In this document: positions 8,407 to 63,587 of the stretch, in pieces
Layout of the letters: the number at the start of each line of letters is the position of its first letter
Numbering within the stretch: the first letter of the stretch is position 1
From: Polyangiaceae bacterium
GTDB lineage: Bacteria; Myxococcota_A; Polyangia; Polyangiales; Polyangiaceae
Length of the DNA stretch: 64,000 nt
Direction of reading: 5' to 3'
Assembly (NCBI GenBank): GCA_033763455.1
Contig: JANRKO010000039.1
Span: forward strand, 161,499-225,498
Program-made: the position numbers and the translations under genes
The notes under the pieces: model-generated
Databases searched by the model: none
What the model was told of the DNA's origin: nothing
The model's input: only the letters and a program-made list of their open reading frames with translations

Positions 8407-8591
8407 GAGCACCCCTTCAGACTGTTAACAAGTACTTGTCATGACAACTACTTCAGCGCTCCGCTACACCCCTCTTCCGGCGCCGCTCCAGGATTGGCGA
8501 AACGAGCGCTGGCGAGCACCCCTTCAGACAGTTAACAAGTACTTGTCATGACAACTACTTCAGCGCTCCGCTACACCCCTCTCCCGGCGCC
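8407..8591. repeat. 78-bp direct repeat x2 (8407-8484, 8514-8591) with a palindromic core
   Basis: Copies differ at 2 positions; core contains GTTAAC, ACAAGTACTTGT and TTGTCATGACAA palindromes; 29-bp spacer. Confidence 0.9.
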
Positions 8592-41976: not shown

Positions 41977-42024
41977 GAGCCAAGGATAGCACCATTCGGT
42001 GCCCGAGGCCGAGTGTCCCGGTAA

Positions 42025-42154
42025 GATGCCCCCTCTCGTCCGCCCTCCGGCGCGCGGAAGAATGTTGAGTGGCGAACGGCAACTCGCGCGCCTGCGGGCG
42101 GCCGGTCTCGCCCCTTATCCGTGCGAGGTTAGCTCGCACGGATGGGGGAGACGG
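42025..42154. repeat. ~130-bp structured island repeat, copy 1
   Basis: gatgccccctctcgtcc...ggcgcgcggaagaatgttg...cgcgcgcctgcgggcggccggtctcgccccttatccgtgcgag-loop-ctcgcacggatggggg. Confidence 0.95.
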
Positions 42155-42162
42155 TTACGCAC

Positions 42163-42927
42163 TCAACGACCGACTTGAGGCAACTGTATCGCTGGCGCCC
42201 TCGGAATCCGCGCTGACGCAACACGCGGCATTTCGTCCCAGGTTCGATCATCCAACATGCGCCCATTCTTCGATTTCATCACGCCGCCCCATTGCTTGAA
42301 AAAGAAGGGCACTCGTGATGCCAGGCATTGTTCTCGAATATCTCGAACCCACGCCGCATCCATGGGTCGCGCTCCGTGCCCACTCTCGCCGCCCACAATT
42401 ACCCAGTGGATCCCCTCGAGTTTTAGCGTTCCCACGGGCCCAAGCAGTGGCTCGATGCTCAGAAATCGTACTTTCGCTGGCACGCGCCGTAAATGGTCTA
42501 TGCGCGACGTGTACTTGGCATTTTCGACGCTCACGCCGAGCCATACGTTAGGCGTTGGGTGGAGCCGACCGGCGAGTTCAGCCAGGCGCTCAGGACGTTT
42601 GGTCAGCACCTGAAAGCGATGTTGCGGGCAGTCCCGCATTACCGCGAAGACGAGTTCGATGTACTCGGTGGGCACGTCCTCGTGAAAGAGATCTGACATG
42701 CTGTTCACAAACACGAGGCGCCCCCGTCGCCAACGCTTGGGCAGCTCGAGTGCAGAAGGCACTAGCTTGAGATCGAAGCCTTGTTCAAACGGATGACCAG
42801 GAACCCCTCGAAAGCGTTCGGCTAACGTTTCGGCGTAGCAATGCTTGCAGCCGGGTGAGACCTTGGTGCAGCCACGCACTGGGTTCCAAGTGGCGTCGGT
42901 CCATTCGATGGGGCTGCGGTCACTCAT
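42163..42927 (-). CDS. Phage Gp37/Gp68 (DUF5131) family protein
   Basis: IEWTDATWNPVRGCTKVSPGCKHCYAE, FVNSMSDLFH, WVIVGGESG, FFFKQWGG. Confidence 0.92.
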   Translation of the reverse strand: MSDRSPIEWTDATWNPVRGCTKVSPGCKHCYAETLAERFRGVPGHPFEQGFDLKLVPSALELPKRWRRGRLVFVNSMSDLFHEDVPTEYIELVFAVMRDCPQHRFQVLTKRPERLAELAGRLHPTPNVWLGVSVENAKYTSRIDHLRRVPAKVRFLSIEPLLGPVGTLKLEGIHWVIVGGESGHGARPMDAAWVRDIREQCLASRVPFFFKQWGGVMKSKNGRMLDDRTWDEMPRVASARIPRAPAIQLPQVGR

Positions 42928-43074: not shown

Positions 43075-44226
43075 ATGACGCGCGTGCACGTCAAGCCGGA
43101 GCTTCTGCGCTGGGCCTGCGAACGGTCGCGGATCGACGAGGTCGTGCTGAGCGTGCGCTTCCCGCACGTCGAGGCGTGGGAGCGAGGACACAAACAGCCG
43201 ACGCTCAAACAGCTCGAGGCGTTCGCCAAGGCCACGCACACGCCGCTTGGCTACTTCTTCCTCCCTGAGCACCCCGTCGAGCGCCTGCCAATTCAGGACT
43301 TCCGCACTGTTCGCAGCAAGGTTGCTCAGCCGAGCGCCGACCTACTCGACACGATCTACGCCATGCAGCGGCGGCAGGACTTTATGAGCGAGGAGCGGCG
43401 CGACGGTGAGGGCGAGCCCCTCGATTTCGTTGGCAGTGCGCGCCTCGCTGATAACCCGGAGGCGGTGGGGCGCGAGATGCGTCGCGTCGTCGGGCTCGAC
43501 GACGGCTGGGCGGCGGAGGTCAAGACCTGGACGGAAGCTGTGGGTGAGCTGCGGCGGCGCGCAGAGAAGCTCGGCGTGATCGCGGTGATCAACGGCGTCG
43601 TGGGGAACAACACGTCCCGCAAGCTCGACGTTGACGAGTTCCGTGGCTTTGCACTGACGGACTCGTACGCCCCGCTCATTTTCGTGAATGGCGCTGATGC
43701 GAAGTCGGCTCAGATGTTCACGTTAGCGCACGAGCTAGCGCACCTTTGGCTCGGACGCGACGGCGAAGGGGTTTCGGGTTTCGAGGGCATCTTCCCGGGT
43801 GGCGAGCGCGTCGAACAGTTCTGCGACCGCGCGGCAGCCGAGTTTCTCGTGGCGGGCGACGAGCTGAAGAAGCAGTGGCCGACGGTGAAACAAGCAGGCG
43901 ACCGGTTCGAGCGGCTCGCGCGTCATTTCAAGGTCAGCCCCATCGTCGCAGCACGGCGTGCAATGGATCTGCGCCTCGTGGGTCGCGATGCGTTCTTCAA
44001 GTTCTACAATGACTACACGCAGCGCGAACGCGATCAGGTGAAGGCCGCGAGCGGTGGTGACTTCTACAACACGCAGAACACCCGCCTCGGCCAGAGCTTC
44101 GCGCTCGCCGTCATGCGGGCCGCCCTCGAGGGGCGGTTGAGCTTCAAAGAGGCGTACGACCTCACCGGTCTGCGCGGCGGCGCGTTTCAGGAGTACGGGC
44201 GTCGACTGGGAGTGCCGCTGCCGTGA
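43075..44226 (+). CDS. HTH + ImmA/IrrE Zn-metallopeptidase
   Basis: WERGHKQPTLKQLEAFA (HTH), DFR, FRGFAL, FTLAHELAHLW. Confidence 0.92.
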   Translation: MTRVHVKPELLRWACERSRIDEVVLSVRFPHVEAWERGHKQPTLKQLEAFAKATHTPLGYFFLPEHPVERLPIQDFRTVRSKVAQPSADLLDTIYAMQRRQDFMSEERRDGEGEPLDFVGSARLADNPEAVGREMRRVVGLDDGWAAEVKTWTEAVGELRRRAEKLGVIAVINGVVGNNTSRKLDVDEFRGFALTDSYAPLIFVNGADAKSAQMFTLAHELAHLWLGRDGEGVSGFEGIFPGGERVEQFCDRAAAEFLVAGDELKKQWPTVKQAGDRFERLARHFKVSPIVAARRAMDLRLVGRDAFFKFYNDYTQRERDQVKAASGGDFYNTQNTRLGQSFALAVMRAALEGRLSFKEAYDLTGLRGGAFQEYGRRLGVPLP

Positions 44227-44348
44227 ACAAAGGCGCCGTCTACATCCTGGACTCCGACGTCTTCATCGCAGCGAAGAACACCTACTACGCCTTCGACATC
44301 TGTCCCGGTTTCTGGGAGTCGATCGTCCAAGCCCACCGCCACGCGTAG
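44223..44348 (+). pseudogene. Truncated DUF4411 (PIN-fold) partner of the ImmA gene
   Basis: Manual translation: MNKGAVYILDSDVFIAAKNTYYAFDICPGFWESIVQAHRHA-stop; GTGA overlap with the ImmA gene. Confidence 0.85.
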
Positions 44349-44472
44349 CGCCTCGCATACTTGCCGACCTCAGCTTTGCTGAAGTCGTACTCTTCGAGGA
44401 GATCCGGATCATTGGTAATGGGCTTGCTCATGTGCGTCGTCGCTCGCTTGGGGTAGCAATTCTAGCGCTCGC
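44341..44472 (-). pseudogene. BrnT 3' remnant plus BrnA-like 5' remnant
   Basis: Minus strand SARIATPSERRR-stop overlaps ATG 44431: MSKPITNDPDLLEEYDFSKAEVGKYARRYA, after which similarity is lost. Confidence 0.65.
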
Positions 44473-44910
44473 TCAGCGAGGCTTCGTCGTGCCTGGCACG
44501 AGTTCGAAGCCGAAAGTCCAGAAATCAGAGTCAAAGGAAAAAATACGAAACATGTCGTAGCGCAACATCACGGCTGCACACAAAGCATCATGGTAGCTCA
44601 AACTCTTGTCGGCATACTTCTGGACGAGTTCAATTGCCTTGTGCTCGTCCTCTTCACCGAATGCGATCGTCCGAACTCTTGACGCGCGGAGCATGCCGAA
44701 CCCCTTCAGAGCGAGATCTAGGGAACCATCATATCGAAGACGTGTGAACGATTCGTGTGCGGTTACATCGACAGCACAGAACAACACATCCGTCTGCATC
44801 TTGGCGAAGCATTCACTCGCAATGCTGTGATAAGCGTCATCCACATCCGCAAGCGCCACGGTCGCAGATGTGTCGATGAGAACGGCATTTGCGTAAGCGA
44901 CCCCAATCAC
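44473..44910 (-). CDS. PIN-domain ribonuclease
   Basis: LIDTSA, AHESF, SYHDAL, FSFDSDF: all four acidic positions present. Confidence 0.88.
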   Translation of the reverse strand: MIGVAYANAVLIDTSATVALADVDDAYHSIASECFAKMQTDVLFCAVDVTAHESFTRLRYDGSLDLALKGFGMLRASRVRTIAFGEEDEHKAIELVQKYADKSLSYHDALCAAVMLRYDMFRIFSFDSDFWTFGFELVPGTTKPR

Positions 44911-45137
44911 TTGAGAGGCGCTAGATTCGGCTCCCCGGAGACCTTATGCCACCCCTCAGCAAGCGCCGGTGGAACCCCTTCAACGACGCGTCGCAGCGCA
45001 CCGTCGATTACACGGTACGTTCCTGGAGGAAGGAACGACTGGGCGTGTGGCGCCGATTCCGGAAGTGACCTTGTAAAGTAGTTCACCGCATGCTCAGCAG
45101 TGGAGAGGGAGAATTGTTCGGAAACAAACTTCGTCAT
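44907..45137 (-). CDS. 76-aa hypothetical protein
   Basis: 4-nt start/stop overlaps with both neighbours. Confidence 0.75.
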   Translation of the reverse strand: MTKFVSEQFSLSTAEHAVNYFTRSLPESAPHAQSFLPPGTYRVIDGALRRVVEGVPPALAEGWHKVSGEPNLAPLK

Positions 45138-46240
45138 TTGTCGAACCCTTGTTGCGCTTTGTTGTGTGCCCAGCCGCGAGACAGTACCTCAACATGGAAC
45201 GACCGGGGAAGCCCTCTAATAAGTGGCATCGGTTGACCTGGCGGAAGCTGGATCTGGACTTCTGGCGGGAGGGCCGAACTTTGTCCTAGCACGGCCTGGG
45301 TCTCGTGCAGGTAGCCCCAAGCAGTAGACTCCAAGACGCCCCCAATAAATCGCACTTTTTTGGACGTCTCATCCCCCATAAACGCCGAGAGGAAGAATGG
45401 ACGCCGAAGCTCGAAGGTATCCTCGTACGAGCGCAAGAGGACATCAAGCGCGCCAGCTAGCTCGTCGGAAGCGAAGTCAACATGCTCGGCCCCAAGGATG
45501 TCTCTTGCTTCGTAGCGGTTAACCATGTGCAGATGAGACCAAAACCGCGTCGTCAGCGCTTCAATGATCTGATCCTCACGCCGATTGGGAATGGGGTGGA
45601 GCAGAAGCAGCTTCTTGGCAAGCTGCTGAATTTGCTGGTGCACGCGGTAGACGTTTCCTAGCGCAAGGGGGTGTACCTCGTGTGCCAATCGCCCAAGATA
45701 AGGACCCACGTTCTGCCGCAGCGCCTCTAGTTCGTTGGCAGGGTCGATCTGGAACTGGTCAAGGATAAAACTGCGAAAGGCTCGTACATCTTCCACGCTA
45801 ATTGCAAGCCTCGAAGTCGACCTTGCGGGATCCAAGGGATTGAACTGATTCCCAGTACTTGGATCAATTGGGCTGAGCTCAGCCATAGCCGTCAGCACAA
45901 TCTTCTTTGCACCTAACGCAAGGAGGCTACCTGCACTGTGGCAACGAAACGGCACGAGCACTTCGAAGTCTGGATCAAACTCACGCACTATGCTGACCAA
46001 CGGCCACACGCCGTTTACATCACCGCCTCGCGTGTAGAGACAGATGTCGATCTTAGATGAGCCGGTTTCCTTCAACACCCGAAATAGTGCAGCTTTTGTG
46101 TCGGCATTAAATGCCGTGTCCAGCCCCAGTGGCACTGCCGGTTCGCTCAATCTGTCGAAGTTGAAGAAACAGATCATCTTTCGTCCAGGCCTGAGCGCCT
46201 CGACCTGCTCGATCAAACCCTTACGTGTCTCGTAGTCCAT
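45134..46240 (-). CDS. ClpP/crotonase-fold serine protease (SDH_sah-like)
   Basis: IDICLYTRGGD, VLVPFRCHSAGSLLALGA, ELSPIDP, FWSHLH. Confidence 0.85.
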   Translation of the reverse strand: MDYETRKGLIEQVEALRPGRKMICFFNFDRLSEPAVPLGLDTAFNADTKAALFRVLKETGSSKIDICLYTRGGDVNGVWPLVSIVREFDPDFEVLVPFRCHSAGSLLALGAKKIVLTAMAELSPIDPSTGNQFNPLDPARSTSRLAISVEDVRAFRSFILDQFQIDPANELEALRQNVGPYLGRLAHEVHPLALGNVYRVHQQIQQLAKKLLLLHPIPNRREDQIIEALTTRFWSHLHMVNRYEARDILGAEHVDFASDELAGALDVLLRSYEDTFELRRPFFLSAFMGDETSKKVRFIGGVLESTAWGYLHETQAVLGQSSALPPEVQIQLPPGQPMPLIRGLPRSFHVEVLSRGWAHNKAQQGFDK

Positions 46241-46383
46241 AGGTCACCTGACGCGTGTTCAACTCGGCTTCTCTCCCGCTCGTGGCCGCAACCAAACGCG
46301 AGCGTAGGATTATGCCGGGCTGCCTCCCATGGCAAGATTTGGTGCGCAATGGGTTTCATCCCCCTGGGTTCTGTGATGCATGC

Positions 46384-46514
46384 GATGCCCCCTCTCGTCC
46401 GGCCTCCGGCGCGCGGAAGAATGTTGGCTCGGGAGCGGTAGCTCGCGCGCCCTGCGGGCGGCCGGTCTCTCCCCTTAGCCGTGCGAGGTTGAATCGCACG
46501 GATGGGGGAAACGG
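46384..46514. repeat. ~130-bp structured island repeat, copy 2
   Basis: Aligns end to end with copy 1; differences fall mostly in the loops. Confidence 0.95.
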
Positions 46515-46571
46515 CTAGAGATCGCCCCTTCGCTACGGCGCCCATTCTGCTAGAATCCACGAGGAGTAACC

Positions 46572-47840: not shown

Positions 47841-47934
47841 GGGTCGAGAGATTTTGTAAGGGTAGCTTATTCGAGAGCGAACGGGGGAGTTACTGGCGGA
47901 ATCGCGCGTGAAACCTGAGAGCTGACGGACCTGC

Positions 47935-48063
47935 GATGCCCCCGCTCGTCCGGCCTCCGGCGCGCGGAAGAATGTTGAGTGGCGAACGGCACCTCGCGCA
48001 CCTGCGGGCGGCCGGTCTCGCCCCTTATCCGTGCGAGGTTGGACTCGCTCGGATGGGGGAGAC
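47935..48063. repeat. ~130-bp structured island repeat, copy 3
   Basis: Aligns end to end with copy 1. Confidence 0.95.
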
Positions 48064-48124
48064 TGAGGGAGCGACAAGTCCGAGAACGCAGGCGCCGTAC
48101 GAATACTTGAGGGCACGCGTGCGC

Positions 48125-49075
48125 TCAGTAAGAACGCCTCACCGTTACCTGCGCTAGCGGGTAGTATTTTGAATACGCCGCCAGTGCCGCCTCTGCTGCG
48201 TCGGCCGACCCTTGCCTGCCGGCTACGAAGACCCCGCTCATCCCGTGGCTCGCCAGATTGAGGAGCCCGCCGTTGCCATGCTTAGCAGAGGAATTTTCAA
48301 GTTCAAAGGCGACCACAGGAATCGCTGTTGCTTCTTCCGGCGTGATACCTGGTACTGCCGCCTTCGGCGACATCGTCCCCACCGCCTCGACGAAAGACGC
48401 GAGACCCTTCGGCATTGGGAGAAACCAGACCTGATCGATCTTGCTCTGAGTGGGAGCACGCGAAATTGGGAACAAGCCCCGCGCGTCATCGTGCACAACA
48501 AACCCGGCTCGCTCACCTATCTCCCTTAGGTTTGCCCTCGTGCGGCGCGCCCAATCAGCTTCGCCCCCGCTACCCTTTGGAAGTTGCTGTTTCAACTCAG
48601 TAAGAGCCACTGATAGCTCGATTCGAGCAAGCTCTGGCGCCCAGCGGGCATCGAGAACCATGATCCGAGTCGCTCCAAAGTAGGCTTCCTGAGACTGGTG
48701 CAATCTGAGCCCGCGCTCGTAAAGATTGTCAACGCTTCCGCCTCGGGGAGCGAGCACGCCGAACCAAGCCCCGGAGACTCGTAGGTTCGCCAGATCCGCT
48801 TGCATTCCCTTCGTCGAAGCGTCGGAACCTTCGACTTCGAATGCCATGACGGGCAACGTTTCGCCATAAAGGCGAGGAGTAGCTCCCACCTCGTTGAGAG
48901 CTGCTAGCTGCGACGCCGTCAGCCTCATTGTCCAAAGGATATCAAGGCGAGGCGCGTAGATACGCGCGGGTTGCACGCCTTTCGTGGAAACGACCACCTC
49001 GCGGAGTGCGGAAAAGCCCATTCCCTGGGCCATTTTCAGGAAAAGATCATGAACTTCGTCGGTGGATCCTTTCAC
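48125..49075 (-). CDS. Protein with two tandem PD-(D/E)XK-like (restriction-endonuclease fold) domains
   Basis: Internal duplication: GMGF..RLDILW..PVMAFEVEGS..K..LANL versus RAGF..KIDQVW..PVVAFELENS..K..LLNL. Confidence 0.6.
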   Translation of the reverse strand: MKGSTDEVHDLFLKMAQGMGFSALREVVVSTKGVQPARIYAPRLDILWTMRLTASQLAALNEVGATPRLYGETLPVMAFEVEGSDASTKGMQADLANLRVSGAWFGVLAPRGGSVDNLYERGLRLHQSQEAYFGATRIMVLDARWAPELARIELSVALTELKQQLPKGSGGEADWARRTRANLREIGERAGFVVHDDARGLFPISRAPTQSKIDQVWFLPMPKGLASFVEAVGTMSPKAAVPGITPEEATAIPVVAFELENSSAKHGNGGLLNLASHGMSGVFVAGRQGSADAAEAALAAYSKYYPLAQVTVRRSY

Positions 49076-49083
49076 GTTCAGTT

Positions 49084-50277
49084 CTACCGATCACCATCAA
49101 TGTAAATATCCCGCGTTTTCTTCTCGCCACGCTGAGTTCTTGCGAGCACACTCTCCAATGGGCGGCGAGGTTCGCCGTTCCGGCCATAGTACGCGATTCC
49201 TGAAGCGGCCGAAGTCACGTCAGGGAGATCCTTCATGATGCCTGACCAGCCGAGTGCCCAGATGTTGGCTGAATCGGTTTGGTGGGGGTGCTGGAGCACG
49301 ACTGTCGGTCTGAATTGTCGCGCGAGCTTGCGCATCAAGTCACAACGTTGGCGACGCTCGCCTCCCGGTTTTTGTCGAGAGTGACTCCTGGGGCTCCACA
49401 TGTTGAGATCGTGACAGCCGAGAACGAGGACCCGTTCACCACCTATCTCGAGCAGGTGGCTTCGCACGTCCGCGACGTGGAGCAACGTGTCTTCTTGGTC
49501 CGAAATAGGGTAAGATTTTCCCGTCCAGCGGAGCAGCCTGCCTGTAGACACATCGAAGACAGCGACAAGCTCGGCGTGATGATCGTCTAAACGGCCGTCC
49601 TCACCGAGATCCAAGCCAAGAGTGATAAACTGAACGCGGCCGCGTGCAGTACTCAGCACCCGCGAGGAAACGACCTCCTTTGCGTGTTCAGTTGCTACCC
49701 CCAACACCTTTGCGAGATCCTTCTCCGTGGAGTTCCAGCCCAATTGACCCCGAAAATTCCTCGGGAAAGGCTGCTGCGCAAATCCTCCCGGCGTAAGAAG
49801 GAACTTGGCTCCAAGATTAGCAGGCAATTTCTTCACGGCATCCAAGAGCAGGCGTTCCGCGTTCTTAAGGCTGGCCGGCGGACACCCGTTCACCACGGCG
49901 CGAACAATTACTGGTGCATCGCTCCGCGACGCATCAGGTTTTGATGGCCGTGGCACGGACGCGCGCTTCTGCGTCTGCGGGAGCACGCTGCTTTCTCGCG
50001 CCTGAGATTTTCCTGGTCCCGCGATTTCAAATCCCAGGCGTCGTAACGGCTCATTTGTCTGCGCACCGCCGTAAAACTCTGAGGTGCTAAAGGCCCTGCC
50101 AGTTGCACATTCGACGGCAAGCGAAAGGAGGTACTTCGGTGGATACGTTCTCCCTGCATGGACCACCGAGTACTTGGTCGAGCTATGAGTTTCGGGAAAG
50201 CCTTCTCGCTGGATTCGCTGGATCGCCTCCAGAACATTCTGTCGGGTCACGAGCTGAATTGGGTTTGTTTGCGTCAT
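49084..50277 (-). CDS. McrA/McrB-type N-terminal head domain fused to a divergent carbon-nitrogen hydrolase (nitrilase-like) domain
   Basis: N-terminus VTRQNVLEAI..STKY..GRTYPPKY..FYGG..N..LRRLGFEI; C-terminus FLLTPGGF, TGKSYP, VLVLGCHDL. Confidence 0.6.
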   Translation of the reverse strand: MTQTNPIQLVTRQNVLEAIQRIQREGFPETHSSTKYSVVHAGRTYPPKYLLSLAVECATGRAFSTSEFYGGAQTNEPLRRLGFEIAGPGKSQARESSVLPQTQKRASVPRPSKPDASRSDAPVIVRAVVNGCPPASLKNAERLLLDAVKKLPANLGAKFLLTPGGFAQQPFPRNFRGQLGWNSTEKDLAKVLGVATEHAKEVVSSRVLSTARGRVQFITLGLDLGEDGRLDDHHAELVAVFDVSTGRLLRWTGKSYPISDQEDTLLHVADVRSHLLEIGGERVLVLGCHDLNMWSPRSHSRQKPGGERRQRCDLMRKLARQFRPTVVLQHPHQTDSANIWALGWSGIMKDLPDVTSAASGIAYYGRNGEPRRPLESVLARTQRGEKKTRDIYIDGDR

Positions 50278-51581
50278 AGCTTTCCCTTGTCCTTTTCGGA
50301 CCGTCCCACTTCGCGCAAGAACATCTGAAATTGAACTAGCTGCGCCCTTTGAGCCTCAGATGGAGAGTCTGCGTCGAAGTGCATCAGGTCGTTGCGGGTC
50401 TGCCGGGCAATGTGAAATCGCTTCATGAACTCAGCTCGATCAACGTGAAGGTCCAGACGGCCCCAGTTCTGCGGATTCTCTAACAGCCGCCCTAACTCCC
50501 CCAGGTTGAGATCAGCGACGTTCTTGACTTCCCTCGGATCGTGCTCGAGCTTGAATGCCTCAAGTTCACGCCGAGTGAAGTTGCCGCGCTCTGTGAGCAT
50601 GCGGAGTTGCCTCTCAATTTCTCCGAGAACGATAAACGGGCCCGCATGGTCATGCAGGAACTGCCCAAGAACCGCTCGCGTTATGATGCCCGTAATGAGG
50701 TTTTCCCCATCCTTCACAACGACATATCCCGATGAAACCACCTCAGGAATAATGTCAAAAAAGGAATCGTTGGTGCTTACCGTGGGCGCATTCCGTTGCA
50801 TCACGTCTCTCACTCGAGAATCCAGAGTGCCCTTTTCCAGCGCTAAATACTTCGCAATGTCGGACCAGCGCAGAACTCCATCAAGCGAGCGAGGGTTTCT
50901 GAACACCAGAAGGTGCGAGATCTGACTGGCCATCATCCGCGTCACGGCGACGCGAAGGAGGTCGTCAGGGGCCGCGCTCACAAGATCTTTGATGCGGGCC
51001 TCCGGAAGTGACCCCACTCTGGGCGTTGCATCCCCTGGAGAATCCATCTTTGCGGGAGGCTCTTCGCTTTGCTCCGAGCTACCAGGGGCGGAAGCGGTTT
51101 CCGGTTGGGTATCAGGCGTACGGGGGACCCGCCCCAACGTCACAGCTGCGTCCATGGACACTGCCATGAAGTCCGGTGTCGTTTCGAGATCAAAGCCTGT
51201 GAGGGCGCCACGGATCCTTTCCACCGTCGCCTCTGTTCTGCGCTCAACACCGAACCAGCGAAGGAGTTGACGCACCGCAACCTCAACAGGGGTCCCGTCC
51301 CGATCAATGGCCGCGCTGGCCTCCTTAAGCTTGGCAACGTGGAGCGGCGTATCTGTATCCGCTACGAAATGAAGCTCCTCGTCGACATCAGCATTCTCAA
51401 AGTCAGGCAACGTACGAAGGCCGTGTTTGGCCAGCCTTGATCGCATGTTCTCAACGATATTCGCGCCGCGCCTTCGAGATCCGAATCGTTCCAGGAGGTC
51501 GCGCGCACTCATGCGTTCAGGTTTCCCCTGCCTCACCCTGGCCGCTACCATCTCTAACCAGCTATCAACCGCCCTTGGCAT
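50274..51581 (-). CDS. Duplicated N-terminal domain + CBS pair + HEPN (Swt1-like) protein
   Basis: Two copies of R.LL..FG..RR....V..(M/I)R..L....L.T.PDF; CBS pair (AVTRMMASQISHLLV, GIITRA); HEPN EIERQLR, LGEL and RNDLMH (RxxxxH). Confidence 0.75.
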   Translation of the reverse strand: MPRAVDSWLEMVAARVRQGKPERMSARDLLERFGSRRRGANIVENMRSRLAKHGLRTLPDFENADVDEELHFVADTDTPLHVAKLKEASAAIDRDGTPVEVAVRQLLRWFGVERRTEATVERIRGALTGFDLETTPDFMAVSMDAAVTLGRVPRTPDTQPETASAPGSSEQSEEPPAKMDSPGDATPRVGSLPEARIKDLVSAAPDDLLRVAVTRMMASQISHLLVFRNPRSLDGVLRWSDIAKYLALEKGTLDSRVRDVMQRNAPTVSTNDSFFDIIPEVVSSGYVVVKDGENLITGIITRAVLGQFLHDHAGPFIVLGEIERQLRMLTERGNFTRRELEAFKLEHDPREVKNVADLNLGELGRLLENPQNWGRLDLHVDRAEFMKRFHIARQTRNDLMHFDADSPSEAQRAQLVQFQMFLREVGRSEKDKGKL

Positions 51582-51803
51582 CCTTGATCCGCCTCTCGCC
51601 TGACCGTTCCGATGTTAGCCCGGTCGCAAGTCCCGAATAGTGCTACCGAAACTTGGGGCTAGTCAAGCCGCTAAGAGCCTTCTGCCCGTGGATCTAGCGC
51701 GAGAGCTGATTATCAATTCCCAGGGGGTGGTGAGGTGCGCCGACGATGAGCCGGGCCTAGAGTCGGGGTTGCCGGACTGAAGCGCAGTGGGGCGATGCCA
51801 TTT

Positions 51804-51928
51804 GGTGCCCCCTCTCCTCCGGCCTCCGGCGCGCTGAAAAATGTTGAGCGGGGAACGGCACCTCGCGCGCCTGCGGGCGGCCGGTCTCGCCCCTTTTCCG
51901 TGCGAGTTTGGCTCGGACGGATGGGGGG
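51804..51928. repeat. ~130-bp structured island repeat, copy 4 (most diverged)
   Basis: ggtgccccctctcctccggcctccggcgcgctgaaaaatgttg...cctgcgggcggccggtctcgccccttttccgtgcgagtttggctcggacggatggggg. Confidence 0.92.
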
Positions 51929-52168
51929 GATGATTACCTCAAACTCTAGCGCCCGCCTCGCTGCTAGTGCGGCGGTGTGATCAAACTTTCCTGAGCCGCG
52001 AGGTTTCTTTCGGCCTTAAATCTGACTAGGTGTCGAGCGTCCAAGCGTCCAAGCACGGCGTATCGATGGCCTTTGCCAGAAGTGCAAGGAACCGGAAAGG
52101 GTGCCGGGCGCTTCGCTTCGATTCTACGCCCAACCTGTCGAAGTACCGACCTCAAGGACCTGACGAAG

Positions 52169-52651
52169 CTATCGCCGTTCCAAGAGTGTGGGCCTAGACG
52201 AGCCGCGCTCAACACACCACACGCAGAGCGACTGCGTACCCAGGATGACGAACAGCAGGAAAGATTGCTCATAGCGAGCTTTGCGCGCGACACGACGCCA
52301 GTCATCGATGTCTTGCCGCGAGGGCGACGGATGGGGCTCAGGATGAGAGTGCCACTCTCCGAGATAGATTCGAGTTCCTTGACTATCGATCCACGCTTGA
52401 TGCACACGCGCCTGCGCGCCCGTGCGGCTTCTTAAGAATCGGTATCTACTTCGAAGGTCATTGCTGCATGGCGTTGTTACTTGATCAATGACGACGTCGC
52501 CGGTCGCGAGGATGATCCTCCCGAGCAGCACTCCGCCAGCTTCGAACGCACCTGTATCCAACTGCCGATACCCGAGCAAGGTGTCGACGCTCTCCTCACC
52601 GAAGGCGACGAGACGATCGCCACCAAGCCTAAAGACTTCAGGCGCGCTCAT
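52169..52651 (-). CDS. cap3: CBASS Cap3 JAB/MPN isopeptidase
   Basis: EAGGVLLG, YLGEWHSHPE..PS..D. Confidence 0.92.
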   Translation of the reverse strand: MSAPEVFRLGGDRLVAFGEESVDTLLGYRQLDTGAFEAGGVLLGRIILATGDVVIDQVTTPCSNDLRSRYRFLRSRTGAQARVHQAWIDSQGTRIYLGEWHSHPEPHPSPSRQDIDDWRRVARKARYEQSFLLFVILGTQSLCVWCVERGSSRPTLLERR

Positions 52652-54344
52652 CTTTGCATCCCGGACACCCAGGGCGCGCGAAACGAGTTGTGGATTGTCT
52701 TTCGCCGGGCTTGAAGCCGCTGGCGCGCGCGCTCACCTTGAACCCGCGGCCGAGGAAGTCCTCCAGGTCCTCCATCCAGCTTGTAAGCGTGTTCGAGCTG
52801 TTACCCGCAAGTACTCGAAGAGCGGCGCGTTGCGCCTCGCAAGCAGCGCGAGTCGCGTCCGCCGCGCCGTACGGGGTGAAAGTACCTGCGCAGCCCGCCA
52901 ATGACTTATCGAACACTTGCCGGTCCGCCGCAAAGAGCGCCTCGTTCGTGAACACGTCATCATGGCTTCGACCAAAAAGACAATAGTAGCAACCGTGAGC
53001 CTTTGGAGCTGGAACCTCCAAAACATGGCCACCCAGTCCGTACGCCTCGAGCCACACATGTACTCGCGGCAAGTCCCGGGGCAGCGCCTTCGTCAGGTCG
53101 AGTTCTAGCGTTTCGTCCCCTACGGCGATGATGATTAGGTCTGAGCCAGTGATTGCTTCTGGGGTTCTTTCCAGTACGCTTTCGATGGGCTCCCGGATGG
53201 GTTCGACAATCGCGTGGGGGAAGTGTTCCCCGAGCATGAGCTGCAGCGCTTCGACCTTTGACCTGCCAACGAACCGGATCCCAGCTGCGTGCCGGTGGAC
53301 GTTTGCCTCTTCAAGCAGCTCTGGATCGATCAACCGAACGCGGCCAACCCCAGACGCTAGCAATTGGAATGCACACGCACTACCCACAGCACCGCACCCA
53401 ACAAGAGTAACCGTTTTTTTGGCAAGGTCGGTAGGCAAGCCAACGCGCGCCAATAGAAAGTCCGCGTCCAGTCGCCTAACCGCGAACCCGCGTGCAGGTC
53501 CGTGCCCTTGCAGAACTCTAGCAATCAGCTGCGATGGACGCCTCCGCATCGCGGGAATGGGACGGAGTGGGAACTCGAGGCCGACGACAATACGTGACTC
53601 ACCGGATGTGTCGGGCATAGACAGTAGCACATTCAAACTCTTTGCCTGAGCCTTGACCAAGTAGGAATTGAACACGCTTGCATCAGGTGCACGACATCGA
53701 ATCTTACGGATGAATTCCCCCACGCGCATCGGATCATCGAACTCCGGCGCTGGCAGGGCCTGCTCAAGTCGAACAAAGAGCGCCCGTTCGCAGTGCACTC
53801 CCCTGACGCCGACACGACCAGCCCACTCGCGAAACTGGCGAGGGTCGTCGGCGACGACCGCTTCAAGAGTTCCGAATCGCGCACGCGACTCCAAGGTGCG
53901 CCAAATCACTTCACGGCTTGGGCCTGCAGCGTTGCAGATGCTGCCCACATCCCCTCCCTGGCGCGGCCAATAGGCCTGGAACTCCCGCTGCAGCTCGACG
54001 TCGGCACTATCAGTGAGACCATCAGCGAGTACGCGCTTCGACCGCTCCACCGCGGCTCGGACGATCTCGCCCGGGCGTTCAATGTCGAGTCGTACACCGC
54101 TCGGAGCCAAGCAGATTTTTCCGTCGCGTCCCACATGTGGAACACGACGGGGAAGCGCGTCGCGCGTCACGCGTACGATCGGCAGCGCGGCCGGAAAACG
54201 CTTCGGCAACTCGAGCGTTGCGGGTACTATCGTACCGCCCAGTGGAAAGCTGCCTGTCCAACTCCGCTCGCCCGTGCGCGTAAACCCAAATTCCGCGCAG
54301 GCTTGTGCTGCCTCGTCCAGGGCTTGCGCAACTAGCAGCGTCAC
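52638..54344 (-). CDS. cap2: CBASS Cap2 E2-E1 (ThiF) fusion
   Basis: E2: FP..LP, PHVGRDGKICL; E1: VGCGAVGS, LIDPELL..NVHRH, GCYYC, GCAGTFTPY. Confidence 0.9.
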   Translation of the reverse strand: MTLLVAQALDEAAQACAEFGFTRTGERSWTGSFPLGGTIVPATLELPKRFPAALPIVRVTRDALPRRVPHVGRDGKICLAPSGVRLDIERPGEIVRAAVERSKRVLADGLTDSADVELQREFQAYWPRQGGDVGSICNAAGPSREVIWRTLESRARFGTLEAVVADDPRQFREWAGRVGVRGVHCERALFVRLEQALPAPEFDDPMRVGEFIRKIRCRAPDASVFNSYLVKAQAKSLNVLLSMPDTSGESRIVVGLEFPLRPIPAMRRRPSQLIARVLQGHGPARGFAVRRLDADFLLARVGLPTDLAKKTVTLVGCGAVGSACAFQLLASGVGRVRLIDPELLEEANVHRHAAGIRFVGRSKVEALQLMLGEHFPHAIVEPIREPIESVLERTPEAITGSDLIIIAVGDETLELDLTKALPRDLPRVHVWLEAYGLGGHVLEVPAPKAHGCYYCLFGRSHDDVFTNEALFAADRQVFDKSLAGCAGTFTPYGAADATRAACEAQRAALRVLAGNSSNTLTSWMEDLEDFLGRGFKVSARASGFKPGERQSTTRFARPGCPGCKDERA

Positions 54345-55330
54345 GCAGACGAACTCGACGTGACAATCGCGGGCGCGCGAGTCTTGCTTGCCGTGTCCTT
54401 GGGGTCAGGCACTGTGAAGGTGTCACCCAACTGTCGCTGGATAACGCTGCACGCCTTGACGGGATCGGGCTCGTTCGCGGCCGACGATAAAGCGTCGGCA
54501 AGCAGCGCGAACCGTCGTTTTAGCGCGTTCATTTCGTCATCGCTCAGCTTGGCAAACATATCTTCGAATTCTGGAGTCGGCTTCTTGGCGACGAGGCGTC
54601 CGATCGCATTCGCGGCGGCCGTCGCGACCTGTCGCAACGCTTCAAGATCGTCGGACGTGTGGTGCCAGCTCTTCACCGGCGCGGTGAGAGAATCAATGGT
54701 GAGCAAGGTGTACGCGAGACCTGAAGGCTTTGCGCTGCCGTCAGTCGGCATCCACACGTCGTCCCACCGCTTGAGATATCGAATAACTCGGCGGAGTTGG
54801 TCGATGCCAATGGCGTCCTCAGTGCCTTTGAAGCGATCCTTCGCCTCGCCAACGTACGCCATAAGCTTCTTCACATCTGCGGCAACCCAGCGGTCCTCGT
54901 TGTGAGCCAGGCGTGAATGCTCACGACCATTCTCGTCCGCCCAGGTCGCATAGATCACTAGGTCGAGATGGTAGCCCTTCGCGTAAGAAACGCGGATGCA
55001 CGGCCCCTTGCTCACAACATTAGCGGTATGCGATTTAATCGCGTCCCAAACCCAGCGCCTTACCTCGGCGGCGGTGAACTCGCTCTCGCTAAACCTGAAA
55101 TGCAGTCCGACATCCATATCGTAGACCTGCTCGCCAGTGGGTTTTACACCGGTCTTCATAGCGTACGATCCCTGGAGCTTCGCGTCGAACCCAGGGCGAC
55201 TGTCTTGTTTCAGTTTTTCGCGAATCTTCTCGAGGATGATTTCTCGCTTCTCACGAAGCTCCTGCTCGAGCTCGTAGTCAAACCGGATGTCAGCGTGAAA
55301 CTTTTCAAAGTATCGTTGAATGTCAGCCAT
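54341..55330 (-). CDS. CBASS cGAS/DncV-like nucleotidyltransferase (CD-NTase)
   Basis: LQGSYAMKT, YDMD, HLDLVIY, IRYLKRW; disordered tail ending SSSSA. Confidence 0.92.
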   Translation of the reverse strand: MADIQRYFEKFHADIRFDYELEQELREKREIILEKIREKLKQDSRPGFDAKLQGSYAMKTGVKPTGEQVYDMDVGLHFRFSESEFTAAEVRRWVWDAIKSHTANVVSKGPCIRVSYAKGYHLDLVIYATWADENGREHSRLAHNEDRWVAADVKKLMAYVGEAKDRFKGTEDAIGIDQLRRVIRYLKRWDDVWMPTDGSAKPSGLAYTLLTIDSLTAPVKSWHHTSDDLEALRQVATAAANAIGRLVAKKPTPEFEDMFAKLSDDEMNALKRRFALLADALSSAANEPDPVKACSVIQRQLGDTFTVPDPKDTASKTRAPAIVTSSSSA

Positions 55331-56351
55331 TGTTTACTCCTATCTCGAGAAGCGCGGCCACCTGGCCACGCGTGGAATTGTCCGTGCCTGCCGCTGTTCC
55401 GATTTGCTTCAACGTGGCCGTCGCCGATTGGTTTACGATGTCGAGCCCAAGGCCGGCGCGACCCGGGAGTTCGACGCGAAGGTAATGTTTCCGTCTGTCT
55501 GCGCTGGAGAACAAGCACTGCAGGGCGCAGTGGTGCAGGCCGACGCCGGAGGCGACAAAGAGATCCGAAAGCGGCAGCGCCCACCCGAAAGCACCGCGAC
55601 GCGATCGCCACCCTGTTTTCAGCGCGGACTTGGGGACATTCTCCGTCCTCAGAACACGCGGTGGTGATATCGAGAAAATGCGCAGATTGGTGGGGTCGAC
55701 GTCCAGGTATTCGAGCGCCTCGGTGTAAGCAAGCAGTGCGGGATTATTTGCGCACACACCGCCGTCGACAAACGTCTCAATCGCGCCCGTTGTCGGATTC
55801 TCTAGCGAAACAGTGGGGAAGAAGATAGGCGCGGAAGCTGTCGCCAGCGCGACGTCCCGGACGAAGTAATCGCCATGTGCGGTGAGCTTGGAAGGATGGT
55901 GATCCGTCTTGAAGAGTCGCGGCTTCCCGGTTGTGAGGCAAAGGGCAGGAACAACAACGGCGCGCCCGCGAGAAGAGATGTCTTTCAAACGTAAATCGCG
56001 GAACGCTTCCGCGAGAGCAACCTTGAGTGGCCCGTTACTCCATTTTGCGGTGAAGAGCGAGCGGATGGTCCGCGAGGTTCTCGACAGCCAACCGAGCGGC
56101 TGCGGAAACACTGACGCGCCCAGTTTTTCATACAGCTCAACGACTTCGGCCGCTGTCATGCCGCTCGCGAGCGCAAGGGCAATTATCCCTCCTGTGCTCG
56201 TCCCGCAGAAAAGGTGGAACTGATCGCTGGCCTTGAAACCCAGGTGGCGCTCGAGCTCGGCCAGGAAGGTTGCTGCCCCCAAACCCAGATACCCGCCCCC
56301 GTCAAGGCAGAGCGCTCGGGTAGTGTGGCACTCATGCTGAACGGATAGCAT
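55323..56351 (-). CDS. capV: CBASS patatin-like phospholipase effector
   Basis: LDGGG, GTSTGG, SAPIFF, VDGGVCANNP. Confidence 0.92.
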   Translation of the reverse strand: MLSVQHECHTTRALCLDGGGYLGLGAATFLAELERHLGFKASDQFHLFCGTSTGGIIALALASGMTAAEVVELYEKLGASVFPQPLGWLSRTSRTIRSLFTAKWSNGPLKVALAEAFRDLRLKDISSRGRAVVVPALCLTTGKPRLFKTDHHPSKLTAHGDYFVRDVALATASAPIFFPTVSLENPTTGAIETFVDGGVCANNPALLAYTEALEYLDVDPTNLRIFSISPPRVLRTENVPKSALKTGWRSRRGAFGWALPLSDLFVASGVGLHHCALQCLFSSADRRKHYLRVELPGRAGLGLDIVNQSATATLKQIGTAAGTDNSTRGQVAALLEIGVNNG

Positions 56352-56587: not shown

Positions 56588-58099
56588 TTAAGCACTAGGA
56601 CGCTTGCGGCTTGCTTCTCGCCTCGACTTTAGGGAGCTGGTCGAGCCTCCACTCGGAGCTTGCAGTTGCGCTAATATCTCCTTAGCGGGCTCGTCATTCG
56701 GGTCCTGCGGGACGAGTTCGCCGCGGAAAGCTTTGGCCAGCTGAGCGCGCTCCAGCGTCAGAAGTTGTTCATCCACCGAAGCATGGCTCGCTGCCGCGGA
56801 GGTCACCCTAGCCATCGCCCGCTCGACGCGTTCGACAAGAAGAACCATTTCCTCGTGCGTGGGGACGGGAACCGCAACCTCCCCCAAGACCTCGAGGTTT
56901 ATATTAGCCTGCGCCGTTGCTGGCGCGAACCGTTTGAGGTCCACACGCGCCGTGCGAATAAACAGTTCGACGTAGGACGCGACGATCGGGCCCCCGTCCG
57001 CAACGAACCCCACAACGCTATCGGGGAAACAAGCATCAAAATCAAGGATTCCTGTGTCCGCGATGTTGGCAGCAATCGTGATGCAAACCGTCCCCCGCGG
57101 GAAGATTCGGCTCTGCGCGACGCCAAATGGCGAGTACATGGTTGAGTGGGAGGTAATTCGTCCCTCTGCCCTAGCGACCTCACCTGTCTGAATGAAAGGA
57201 ATGGCGTTGCCGAACAGAGCGGGGTCGTTGCGCGGACGGTGCTTCGACTTGCCCCGCGCGAGTTCTCCCAGCGTTGGAAGCGGCGCCCAACACCACCCCT
57301 CCGGCAGCTCCGGCAACCCCGTTGCATCCACAGGCTCCGGCTCCTTGTACTTCGCCTTCCATTTATCGTCCGTCGGCGCCTTGCCCTTGGCCTTCATTTT
57401 GGCGAGCTCGGATTCTTCCCATTTTCTGCGGCGCTCCGTGCGGATGCGCTTGAGGAGCTCGCTCGCGGGCTCCACGTTCTTGTGCTTCGCGCGCCAATCC
57501 TTCGTGAGGTCGCCGCGAAAGGCTGCGGCGAGAATCGATTGGCGGAGCTTCTCGAGCAGGGGCGGCACGGCGTCGAGTGCCCCGCGCGCGCGACGGCTTC
57601 GGGCTTGGAGGGCTTCGAGCTTGGCGACGATGCGGCGTTGTTCGTTGAGGGGTGGGAGGGCCAACTCGGTAGCCTCAAACTTCGGTTTCGTGACGTGCGC
57701 CAGACCAGCCCCCCCGTGAGCTAGGTCGATTAGCTCGCTAAGCCGGTCGTTGATGGCATAGCGCAGGAACGACTTGTCGAAGAGCTCTTCGTAGTCGAGC
57801 ACCCTGAAGATGTGCTGATTTAGTATCGCTTGTCCGCGCTGCCAGATATGCGCTCCAAATGAGGTCCCCGGCGTTCCTGACCAAGCAAAGAGAAGCTCTC
57901 CATCCTCGACGAGGAACTTTCGTTCAACGACGCCCGCATAGCGGTTGAAGGCCGCCTTATGATTATTGAGGTTTTGGATGCGAATAATCGGCAGCCCTTC
58001 ATCCGTCCAGTCCGTGGGCTTGAAAGCTCGACCGTTAACGAGACGGCATGAACGCCCCACAGATACCTTCGACCATCCCCGTGGTAGCCGCTCGTTCAA
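56588..58099 (-). CDS. hsdS: Type I RM specificity subunit
   Basis: LPRGW, PPLNEQRRIV, LRQSILAAAFRGDL, AFRGELVPQDPNDEPA; two TRDs. Confidence 0.95.
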   Translation of the reverse strand: MNERLPRGWSKVSVGRSCRLVNGRAFKPTDWTDEGLPIIRIQNLNNHKAAFNRYAGVVERKFLVEDGELLFAWSGTPGTSFGAHIWQRGQAILNQHIFRVLDYEELFDKSFLRYAINDRLSELIDLAHGGAGLAHVTKPKFEATELALPPLNEQRRIVAKLEALQARSRRARGALDAVPPLLEKLRQSILAAAFRGDLTKDWRAKHKNVEPASELLKRIRTERRRKWEESELAKMKAKGKAPTDDKWKAKYKEPEPVDATGLPELPEGWCWAPLPTLGELARGKSKHRPRNDPALFGNAIPFIQTGEVARAEGRITSHSTMYSPFGVAQSRIFPRGTVCITIAANIADTGILDFDACFPDSVVGFVADGGPIVASYVELFIRTARVDLKRFAPATAQANINLEVLGEVAVPVPTHEEMVLLVERVERAMARVTSAAASHASVDEQLLTLERAQLAKAFRGELVPQDPNDEPAKEILAQLQAPSGGSTSSLKSRREASRKRPSA

Positions 58100-59520
58100 G
58101 CGCCGCCTCCCAATTCCTCTTGCAACGCCATCATCTCCTCCAACGCAATCTGCAACTGCGCCACAATCTCCGCCGCAATAACCTCCGGCTCCGGCAAATC
58201 AGCGTGGTCCGTCACGCTGTCATCCTTGAGCCAAGAGATATCCAGATTGTCCCCTCTTTTCGCAATCTCCTCCCGCGTAAACTTACGAAACCGCCCAGTT
58301 TCTCCCTGATCCTTGCGTTTGCTCTTGCCGTGCGAATCCGCGCCGTACGCTTTCTCAAACTCAGCAAAATGCGCCCGAGTAAAAGGCGTGCGCTTGCCGA
58401 AGGAGGGCATGTTGGTGCGCATGTCAAAGAACCACACGGCTTTCGTATTCCCTTTGTCCTTCTCGCCGCGTGTGAAGAAGAGAACGTTCGTCTTCACCCC
58501 CTGCGCGTAGAAGATGCCCGTGGGCAAGCGAAGGATGGTGTGGAGATCACACTTTTCCATCAAATCCCCACGCACCTTTTGCCCCACGCCTTCTTCGAAG
58601 AGCACGTTATCCGGCAGCACCACAGCTGCACGCCCGCCCGGCTTCAGGCCTCGGTAAATGTGCTGGAGGAAAACGAGCTGCTTGTTGCTCGTGGGGTAAG
58701 TGATGTCGTCGCGAGTTGGGCCGCCACCGCCCTTTTTTGTGCCGAAGGGTGGGTTCGTGAGAATAACATCAGCTTTTGGTAGCTGGGAGCCAGTGGGGCC
58801 GAGCGTATCGCCGAGTACGATGTCCCCCTCGATGTCGTGGAGCATCGCGTTCATGAGCGCCAGGCGCTGCACATCCGGCACCAACTCAACGCCGTAGAAG
58901 GCTTCCCGGCGCTGGAAGTTTTGCTTGGCTACGGAGAGGTCGTGGTAGTCGTCCGTGAGAGACTTTACGTAGCGATCGGCGTTGATGAGGAAGCCACCGG
59001 TGCCGACTGCGGGATCTTGAATGCGCTCACCCGGCTGCGGCTTGATGAGCTCCACCATGCACTCAATCAGCGGGCGCGGTGTGAAATATTGGCCGGCGCC
59101 ACTCTTGGTTTCTTCCGCGTTCTTTTCTAGCAACCCCTCGTAGAGGTCGCCGAGCCCTTCCGATTTGGCGCTATACCAGTCGAGATCGCTGATGGCCTGC
59201 ACAACAGTTTGCAGGTGGCGGGGCTGACGAAAGGAGGTGGAAGCGTTGGCGAAAATAGCCTGCACTCGCCCCGAACCGTTACCGCCCAGATCGATGAGCA
59301 GCTTCTTGTAGAAATTGAGCAGCTCCACGCCATCTTTCTTCGCGACGTCGTCCCAGCGGTAGCCTTTGGGGATCTGCTCTTCGGCCCCCGTTTCTTTCAT
59401 CATCTTGAGGAACAAGAGGTACGTGAGCTCCGTCACGTATTCGTGGTACGTGATGCCGTCGTCGCGCAGGATGTTGCAGAGGTTCCAGAGCTTCTGAACG
59501 ATGTCTTGAGTGTTGGGCAT
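58096..59520 (-). CDS. hsdM: Type I RM N6-adenine methyltransferase
   Basis: GAGQYFTPR, DPAVGTGGF, NPPFG, LRLPTGIFY. Confidence 0.97.
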   Translation of the reverse strand: MPNTQDIVQKLWNLCNILRDDGITYHEYVTELTYLLFLKMMKETGAEEQIPKGYRWDDVAKKDGVELLNFYKKLLIDLGGNGSGRVQAIFANASTSFRQPRHLQTVVQAISDLDWYSAKSEGLGDLYEGLLEKNAEETKSGAGQYFTPRPLIECMVELIKPQPGERIQDPAVGTGGFLINADRYVKSLTDDYHDLSVAKQNFQRREAFYGVELVPDVQRLALMNAMLHDIEGDIVLGDTLGPTGSQLPKADVILTNPPFGTKKGGGGPTRDDITYPTSNKQLVFLQHIYRGLKPGGRAAVVLPDNVLFEEGVGQKVRGDLMEKCDLHTILRLPTGIFYAQGVKTNVLFFTRGEKDKGNTKAVWFFDMRTNMPSFGKRTPFTRAHFAEFEKAYGADSHGKSKRKDQGETGRFRKFTREEIAKRGDNLDISWLKDDSVTDHADLPEPEVIAAEIVAQLQIALEEMMALQEELGGGA

Positions 59521-59539
59521 GGGCTACTTCGCGAAACCT

Positions 59540-63022: not shown

Positions 63023-63152
63023 GGCCGCTACTCTGAGAGGGCCTACGGTCCCCCTATAGAATCCGAAACTATCGGCCGACCACGACCGGGGGTCAAGCGC
63101 CCCAAGCGTGGCGTATACGCAACTGTCGGAGCAGTGTTGCCGATAGGGCCCC

Positions 63153-63587
63153 ATGCTTAAATCAGGAACGCTTGGCCGGCGCAAAACGCTCGACCCGAAG
63201 CTTGATATAGTGTTTTGGATGTCAGCCGCAGGCGACGAGGACTTGGAGAAGTTAGCCATGGAACACCCGGTGCTCAAGCAAGCCAAAGACGCCCTGGATC
63301 GCCTGAGCGCGGATGAACTCGCACAAATCCAAGCCGAGCACCGCGAGATGGCCCTGTTAACCTACGAAGCTGGCATCTCGGCCGCACGACACGAGGCTGA
63401 AGAGAAAGGCCGGCAAGAAGGCCGGCAAGAAGGCGAGGCCGAAATGTTACTTCGCCTGCTGACGATCAAGTTCGGCCCTCAACCAGCAGAAGTCGCTCAG
63501 CGATTGGCGAGCGCAAGTCAGGCCGATGTTCTGCGTTGGTCGGAACGCATGTTTTCCGCCGATTCGATCGACGCCATCTTCGCTTAG
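63153..63587 (+). pseudogene. Rpn-family (PD-(D/E)XK 'transposase') gene lacking its nuclease core; DUF4351-like C-terminus intact
   Basis: LDPKLDIVFWM is joined in frame to SAAGDEDLEKLAMEHPVLKQAK...KGRQEGRQEG...LLRLLTIKFG...W. Confidence 0.75.

Follow-up and report, generated by a model that had tools for sequence, protein, structure and literature searches.

A candidate nuclease–nitrilase defence pair beside a DS-11-family gene in a Polyangiaceae bacterium

Results

Gene content of the locus

The stretch of DNA analysed here (the window; 64,000 nt, positions 161,499 to 225,498 of contig JANRKO010000039.1, assembly GCA_033763455.1) comes from a Polyangiaceae bacterium with a genome of 6.56 Mb and holds three intact open reading frames on its minus strand, which overlap at an ATGA stop/start (genes 1 and 2) or are separated by 8 nt (genes 2 and 3). 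As the initial annotation described, they lie between the third and fourth copies of an interspersed repeat and adjoin a type II cyclic oligonucleotide-based anti-phage signalling system (CBASS) (Table 1); with CBASS upstream and type I restriction-modification (RM)-like genes further on, its view of the setting as a defence island was right. The same annotation proposed one coupled three-gene defence system that matches no named one. This proposal fails on two counts: a model for DS-11, a known family, covers gene 1, and the three genes are not found together elsewhere. What remains is a credible, apparently undescribed two-gene defence candidate, made up of genes 2 and 3. Close relatives of these two genes in named organisms include those of Polyangiaceae and Sorangium. 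No sigma-70-like promoter was found when one was looked for.

Gene 2 joins a ScoMcrA-type head to a nitrilase fold

The structure of the gene 2 product was predicted with confidence (predicted local distance difference test score, pLDDT, 91.5). Residues 8–99 of the model match the head of ScoMcrA (5zmm; Z 8.4), a type IV modification-dependent endonuclease, and residues ~121–392 form a nitrilase fold (Z ~16 to formamidase and Nit2); 24 nitrilase-family entries top the structural matches and are followed by a gap down to Z 8.4. Foldseek also matched the nitrilase part (E 7e-8), which has the four-layer alpha-beta-beta-alpha arrangement, and the head corresponds to PF26345 ScoMcrA_N, so that the fusion of a head to a CN-hydrolase-like domain recognized at the outset is confirmed. 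This nitrilase domain, here called type A, belongs to a broad unnamed family from bacteria and methanogenic archaea; one member (P0104) carries a different N-terminal domain that is helix-hairpin-helix glycosylase-like by eye and has no Pfam match.

Canonical nitrilases carry a catalytic Glu in an FPE motif. The equivalent position is Gly164 in gene 2 and Gly in 97 of 98 aligned homologues, and K254, C288, D290 and E236 are invariant in this alignment, which was taken from a whole-protein search although part of the family was retrieved via Lys/Cys motifs. Since the invariant E236 occupies what we take to be the position of the Asn in the canonical YN motif, we infer from the sequences that it may be a relocated catalytic carboxylate, compensating for Gly164.

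Gene 2 has the head in common with ScoMcrA but lacks the SBD, SRA and HNH domains of that enzyme, the nitrilase fold being joined to the head instead, and the nuclease is a separate protein here, the PD-(D/E)xK product of gene 3. Family and structure searches detected no SRA, SBD, EVE or winged-helix (wH) modification-reader domain, and neither gene 2 nor gene 3 had a Pfam, PADLOC or NCBIfam match in the local libraries. In the available part of the ScoMcrA paper, the head is small, flexibly attached and described as of unknown function, and sulfur is read by the SBD (PMC6224610); a role of gene 2 as a reader of modified DNA is at most putative.

Gene 3 is a tandem PD-(D/E)xK nuclease

The two halves of gene 3 (pLDDT 88.2) are homologous to each other (hhalign 99.6%), and a PD-(D/E)xK fold is predicted for both (Z 8.2 for residues 4–153 and 8.1 for residues 159–316). 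These Z values are only moderate; the top structural matches are mostly restriction-type nucleases, and Foldseek returned nothing for gene 3 at E <= 0.001. Both catalytic sites are conserved in a diverse set of sequences (Table 1), and the internal duplication with two D/ExE/K motifs, read at first from the letters alone, therefore stands. The fold of each half is that of PD-(D/E)xK nucleases with an E-x-E/Q site (OkrAI, BglII, BstYI and BamHI) and of NucS, Can2 and AF1548 (Z 5.7–8.2). Unlike these nucleases, gene 3 has two catalytic domains per chain, with the Lys in the following helix, and is accompanied by neither a cognate methyltransferase nor a CARF or SAVED sensor.

At 50% identity the family comprises 156 representatives. 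The 26 members tested matched nothing in Pfam or PADLOC, the nuclease homologues also had no NCBIfam match, and PADLOC matched none of 30 homologues and partners of genes 2 and 3. A degenerate, truncated second copy lies elsewhere in the same genome (G000:C48:15252-15776), at the edge of an island with an OLD/UvrD pair and a SAVED, CD-NTase, HORMA and AAA cluster (by motif).

The nuclease is paired with two kinds of nitrilase

Of 29 non-self gene-3 clusters, the 16 on contigs of at least 4 kb could be tested for pairing, and 15 of these 16 have a nitrilase-fold gene on the same contig. The two genes are adjacent in DNA in four of them (L001, L002, L020 and G070; three with a second kind of nitrilase, type B, and one with type A). 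The other 11 were assigned through an exact match between the size of the longest contig and that of a contig with a type B cluster, a procedure that was correct in both checkable cases (4443 and 20854 nt), and one cluster (P0129) was left unassigned. Type B is distinct from type A and has a canonical FPE/K/CHD site and PF00795; a profile comparison of the two gave no match, the type B profile being made of three sequences only. In G070 and in two GTDB loci, gene 3 is followed by a type B nitrilase, with stop and start overlapping. In a quick tree of 48 nucleases, 29 of them with partner not known, gene 3 of the window and a type A-partnered sister nest among type B-partnered nucleases; the tree also holds a second, convergently oriented type A group, and the branches concerned force at least two changes of partner.

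The head and both nitrilases recur in other combinations. In L063, L065, L070, L073 and L080, type A stands in one fusion protein between the head and a DUF7255 domain, which is Vsr-like, and in L069 and L071 it adjoins a separate Vsr-like DUF7255 gene; HIT and DUF6884-like genes precede the fusion in L065, L070 and L073. In L102 (1453-3162, genome G370) the head is fused to type B, directly upstream of a bacteriophage exclusion (BREX) cluster, and gene 3 was not found in the G370 genome. The operon of the pair contains no methyltransferase in the window, L001, L002, L020 or G070, and the nuclease must therefore spare unmodified host DNA or await activation. Reading the G070 pair as an RM system was dropped because the nearby methyltransferase lies on the opposite strand, in a convergent operon. 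No reverse transcriptase family, as would mark a DRT1 or UG5 system, was present among the genes of the window or 115 PADLOC-scanned neighbours.

Genes 1, 2 and 3 do not travel together

With gene 2 and gene 3 as starting points we collected 82 loci, taking for gene 2 the best 80 of its 262 metagenome matches, and gene 1 was found in none of them; conversely, all four loci of gene 1 homologues lack genes 2 and 3 as well as type B nitrilases, as is fitting for a single-gene system. In a phylum sample of 401 genomes, gene 1 occurs in the present genome (G000), G190 and G305, gene 3 in G000 and G070, and the full gene 2 in G000 and G265 (at least two genomes, the search having been stricter), so that the three coincide in G000 only. 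Three-gene synteny was rejected on these grounds, and the ATGA overlap thus reflects local assembly. What survives of the proposed coupling is the link of genes 2 and 3, gene 1 being unlinked.

A second phylum sample contained gene 3 in one of 321 genomes, the centre genome itself, and the partners of distant Bacillota-type nucleases therefore rest on one cluster (L075/L076). Viral contigs contained neither gene 3 nor gene 1 and a single gene 2 locus, in a prophage; plasmids contained no gene 2 and no distant gene 3.

Gene 1 is a DS-11 homologue

Against NCBIfam NF053863 (DS11_antiphage; cut-off 260), the whole gene 1 protein reaches 285.2 bits, whereas a six-frame search split this score into 252.2 and 34.6 bits, each below the cut-off. 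The features first noted in it, a duplicated N-terminal domain, a CBS pair and RNDLMH, were all recovered: self-alignment pairs residues 10–67 with 87–144 (40% identity, E 1e-10), Pfam PF00571 matches two stretches, and the HEPN motif lies at residues 396–401, with R396 and H401 aligned to R330 and H335 of DS-11. DS-11 itself (WP_000257686.1; NF053863) has the same layout of N-terminal domain, CBS pair and HEPN domain, and gene 1 is 34% identical to a 365-aa Escherichia coli homologue that has Y157 and R330 exactly where DS-11 was mutated. It differs in the duplication of its N-terminal domain, which recurs in the homologue of G190, and in having Ile221 in place of the adenine-contacting Tyr157 of E. 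coli DS-11. That Tyr is not family-wide, because F, V and V take its place in three solitary homologues, among them L114, which likewise exceeds the NF053863 cut-off. According to the available part of the paper, DS-11 is a validated one-protein CBS-HEPN anti-phage system found with DefensePredictor, and both Y157A and HEPN mutations abolish its defence (PMC13092281). By model score for membership and by analogy with DS-11 for mechanism, gene 1 is thus very likely a DS-11 homologue that would act alone, as an adenine-ligand-gated HEPN RNase. It is an independent passenger outside the gene 2/3 module, and the locus is best explained as two separate defence units, gene 1 and genes 2 and 3, that share one transcription block.

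The interspersed repeat and neighbouring genes

All four copies of the repeat in this genome lie in this island, where they separate cassette-like gene blocks. The repeat is genus-specific: it has 3 to 9 matches in each of three same-genus genomes, in which its core and ends are conserved, and marginal matches only (E ~1e-4 to 1e-3) in 4 of 57 other genomes. Across 16 aligned copies it shows two short hairpins with C-rich and G-rich ends, and it often stands beside toxin–antitoxin or Rpn-like genes. The attC sites of integrons have RYYYAAC...GTTRRRY ends on one long hairpin; no attC core was present in the 16 copies and no Rfam match was found, leaving the repeat unsupported as attC, Rfam RNA or terminator. 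It looks like a repetitive extragenic palindromic (REP)- or miniature inverted-repeat transposable element (MITE)-like element marking insertion points, and it is not part of the module because it is absent from all homologue loci. An integron integrase above the TIGR02249 cut-off is encoded at G000:C15:7157-8092, on a contig with no copy of the repeat.

Between repeat copies 1 and 2 lie genes for a helix-turn-helix (HTH)-IrrE peptidase, a PIN protein and a ClpP-like SDH protease (window 43075-46240), which, with a DUF5131 gene (window 42163-42924), are possible further defence or toxin–antitoxin cargo. Elsewhere in the window are a urease operon whose UreE has a long His-rich repeat tail (6027-6734) and a 78-nt direct repeat pair (8407-8591) between the ureG and urea transporter genes. 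Among the homologue loci, type A nitrilase stands between a prokaryotic viperin and a gene of the uracil-DNA glycosylase (UDG) fold in L032 (8793-12397), UDG-like motifs are seen by eye also in L014 and L058, and in L003 (7798-12618) and L089 the nitrilase lies on the opposite strand between prophage portal and terminase genes, an interval that is a typical spot of phage-borne defence genes.

Table 1. Positions of the genes, repeats, catalytic sites and fusions discussed in the text.
Feature	Position	Strand	Remarks
Gene 1, DS-11-family CBS-HEPN protein	50274..51581	-	435 aa, start ATG
Gene 2, ScoMcrA_N head + type A nitrilase fold	49084..50277	-	397 aa, start ATG
Gene 3, tandem-duplicated PD-(D/E)xK nuclease	48125..49075	-	316 aa, start GTG
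Gene 3, site 1	D45/E80/E82/K89		kept in 56, 56, 56 and 54 of 58 sequences
Gene 3, site 2	D214/E258/E260/K265		kept in 58, 57, 57 and 57 of 58 sequences
Type II CBASS: CapV patatin, CD-NTase, Cap2 E2-E1, Cap3 JAB	52169..56351	-	complete; context only
Type I RM-like genes beyond CBASS	56588-63286		assigned by motif
Repeat of ~135 nt, copy 1	42022-42160		
Repeat, copy 2	46381-46520		
Repeat, copy 3	47932-48070		downstream boundary
Repeat, copy 4	51801-51940		upstream boundary, between CBASS and gene 1
Head + DUF7255 + type A fusions	L063:1604-3328, L065:9980-11710, L070:9185-10765, L080:344-2083		

Discussion

Neighbourhood, partner switching and fusions together suggest that genes 2 and 3 are probably coupled in function, as a nuclease–nitrilase module. 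Nitrilase-fold domains have been met in defence before, as far as the available parts of the sources go: metabolite deamidation is proposed for the nitrilase of DRT1, whose substrate is called an open question (PMC13275509), and for ParA-linked C-N hydrolase toxins (10.64898/2026.10.19.760177); a system of reverse transcriptase and nitrilase, UG5, has been placed in defence (PMC13436386); and a supplement row for Lamassu, LmuA_effector_Amidase, implies an amidase effector. The gene 2/3 module shares the nitrilase fold with these systems (DRT1/UG1, UG5, the Lamassu LmuA amidase and the ParA-linked toxins) but is without their reverse transcriptase, SMC or ParA and has a nuclease as partner instead; neither gene 2 nor type B is matched by any PADLOC model, and type A lacks the canonical Glu. 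A pairing of nitrilase and nuclease was not found described in the literature searched, which excluded most subscription papers, and in the available part of a BREX survey a term search turned up neither nitrilase nor McrA (PMC12839542).

Amide, nitrile or carbamate groups, of the kinds that nitrilase-family enzymes hydrolyse, occur in several base modifications of phages. We favour a mechanism, at a probability of roughly one in three, in which invading DNA, or its precursors, would lose an amide or nitrile group to hydrolysis by the nitrilase before the nuclease cuts. The folds, conserved sites, neighbourhoods and fusions described above are its basis, from which we infer substrate, activity and phenotype alike. 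In this scheme the head would bring the nitrilase-fold enzyme to DNA, where the Cys288/Lys254/Glu236 site would hydrolyse a non-peptide C-N bond (amide, nitrile or carbamate) in a hypermodified phage base or its nucleotide precursor. Gene 3, acting as a single-chain pseudo-dimer with two intact sites, would then make a double-strand cut in DNA that has been unmasked or bears the product. The nuclease would need the hydrolase, and the hydrolase alone could serve neighbouring RM or BREX systems.

Several observations weigh against this proposal. The canonical catalytic Glu is replaced by Gly in nearly all type A sequences (97 of 98), the compensating role of E236 is read from motif position rather than from coordinates, and the ScoMcrA head is described, in the part of its paper available, with no assigned role (PMC6224610). 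Eleven of the 15 pairings are indirect, and a shared contig does not equal adjacency; gene 3 stands beside type A in only 6 of 59 non-redundant clusters, plus one truncated copy, and in 2 of the 24 clusters with at least 1.2 kb on both sides. On a tree with weak support, the type A sequences partnered by gene 3 are dispersed among the solitary ones, and the closest relative of gene 2 is 90% identical, but the next-best relative of gene 3 only ~50%. In four clusters gene 3 is convergent to the nitrilase and is therefore not co-transcribed with it. Around the homologues, PADLOC (E <= 1e-8) matches 23 of 115 neighbour proteins, little above the 12 of 88 among control genes taken from 20 regions chosen arbitrarily in this genome. 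In favour of the proposal, by a division into specific and generic matches that was a judgement made after the results were seen, system-specific defence genes (HsdS, HsdM, type II and III methyltransferases, DrmD, LmuB, BrxA, viperin, DpdB, PD-T7-1, PD-Lambda-1 and PDC-S06) occur within two genes in 11 of 36 loci, versus none of the 20 control regions, where all matches are generic: kinases, ATP-binding cassette (ABC) ATPases, S-adenosylmethionine (SAM) methylases, a helicase and similar. Other homologue loci are prophage-like or unremarkable.

It is also possible that the nitrilase is a toxic effector of abortive infection, deamidating an essential metabolite such as nicotinamide adenine dinucleotide (NAD) or nucleotides, with the nuclease as a second effector or as an activating DNA sensor. 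As described in the available parts of the sources, all the defence nitrilases that we found are effectors or proposed toxins (DRT1, ParA-linked and Lamassu), and type A often stands alone and in L058 follows a LmuB-like gene. Such a role leaves unexplained why the nuclease behaves as the dependent partner (15 of 16 nucleases with a nitrilase, versus 6 of 59 type A clusters with the nuclease) and why the nitrilase is joined by a restriction-enzyme head and by nucleases of two unrelated families.

A bolder form of the proposal that we favour, which we regard as speculative, would make the pair the first example of an ‘unmask-and-cut’ module. Here, a DNA-directed nitrilase fold with a rebuilt active site would strip amide, nitrile or carbamoyl camouflage from phage DNA; Mom-type and 7-deazaguanine-type modifications are examples of such camouflage. 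Stripping would license the double-headed nuclease and re-sensitise the DNA to neighbouring restriction systems, and in a bolder variant still, the Glu-less cysteine would trap the lesion covalently.

Two further alternatives appear unlikely. Were the nuclease a toxin restrained by the activity or binding of the nitrilase, and freed when a phage inhibits or removes the latter, the asymmetry of the pairing would be accounted for, the nuclease being almost never without nitrilase and the reverse being common. Most antidotes are specific to one partner, yet here two dissimilar nitrilase families take each other's place; the convergent order in four clusters argues against tight stoichiometric coupling, and catalytic residues are invariant in solitary nitrilases. 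It is similarly improbable that genes 2 and 3 have no functional coupling and are independent single-gene cargo accumulating in the same islands. Gene 2 is indeed mostly solitary, its pairing is patchy on the gene-2 tree, and gene order and orientation vary; yet each family is rare, occurring in 2 of 401 genomes, and 15 of 16 nucleases are nevertheless paired, with two nitrilase families.

A single three-component system, in which genes 2 and 3 would make or process a nucleotide that the CBS-HEPN RNase senses, is very improbable: the ATGA overlap of genes 1 and 2 and a ligand that is unassigned for DS-11 and could differ here, given Ile at the position of the essential Tyr157, speak for it, but the two sides share no locus (0 of 82 and 0 of 4), DS-11 works alone, and the Tyr is F, V and V in three solitary homologues as well, so that the proposal would carry no importance beyond a chance neighbourhood.

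In conclusion, the family of gene 1 is already known, and interest centres on genes 2 and 3. The recurrent association of a nitrilase fold with nucleases and with a restriction-enzyme head offers a two-gene setting, free of reverse transcriptase and SMC, in which to address the substrate question of defence nitrilases. The pair is likewise a test case for the ScoMcrA head and for a natural nitrilase family that lacks the canonical glutamate. If phage base modifications are indeed removed by it, the pair would be a new way of countering hypermodification and might serve as a tool to edit or map modified bases.

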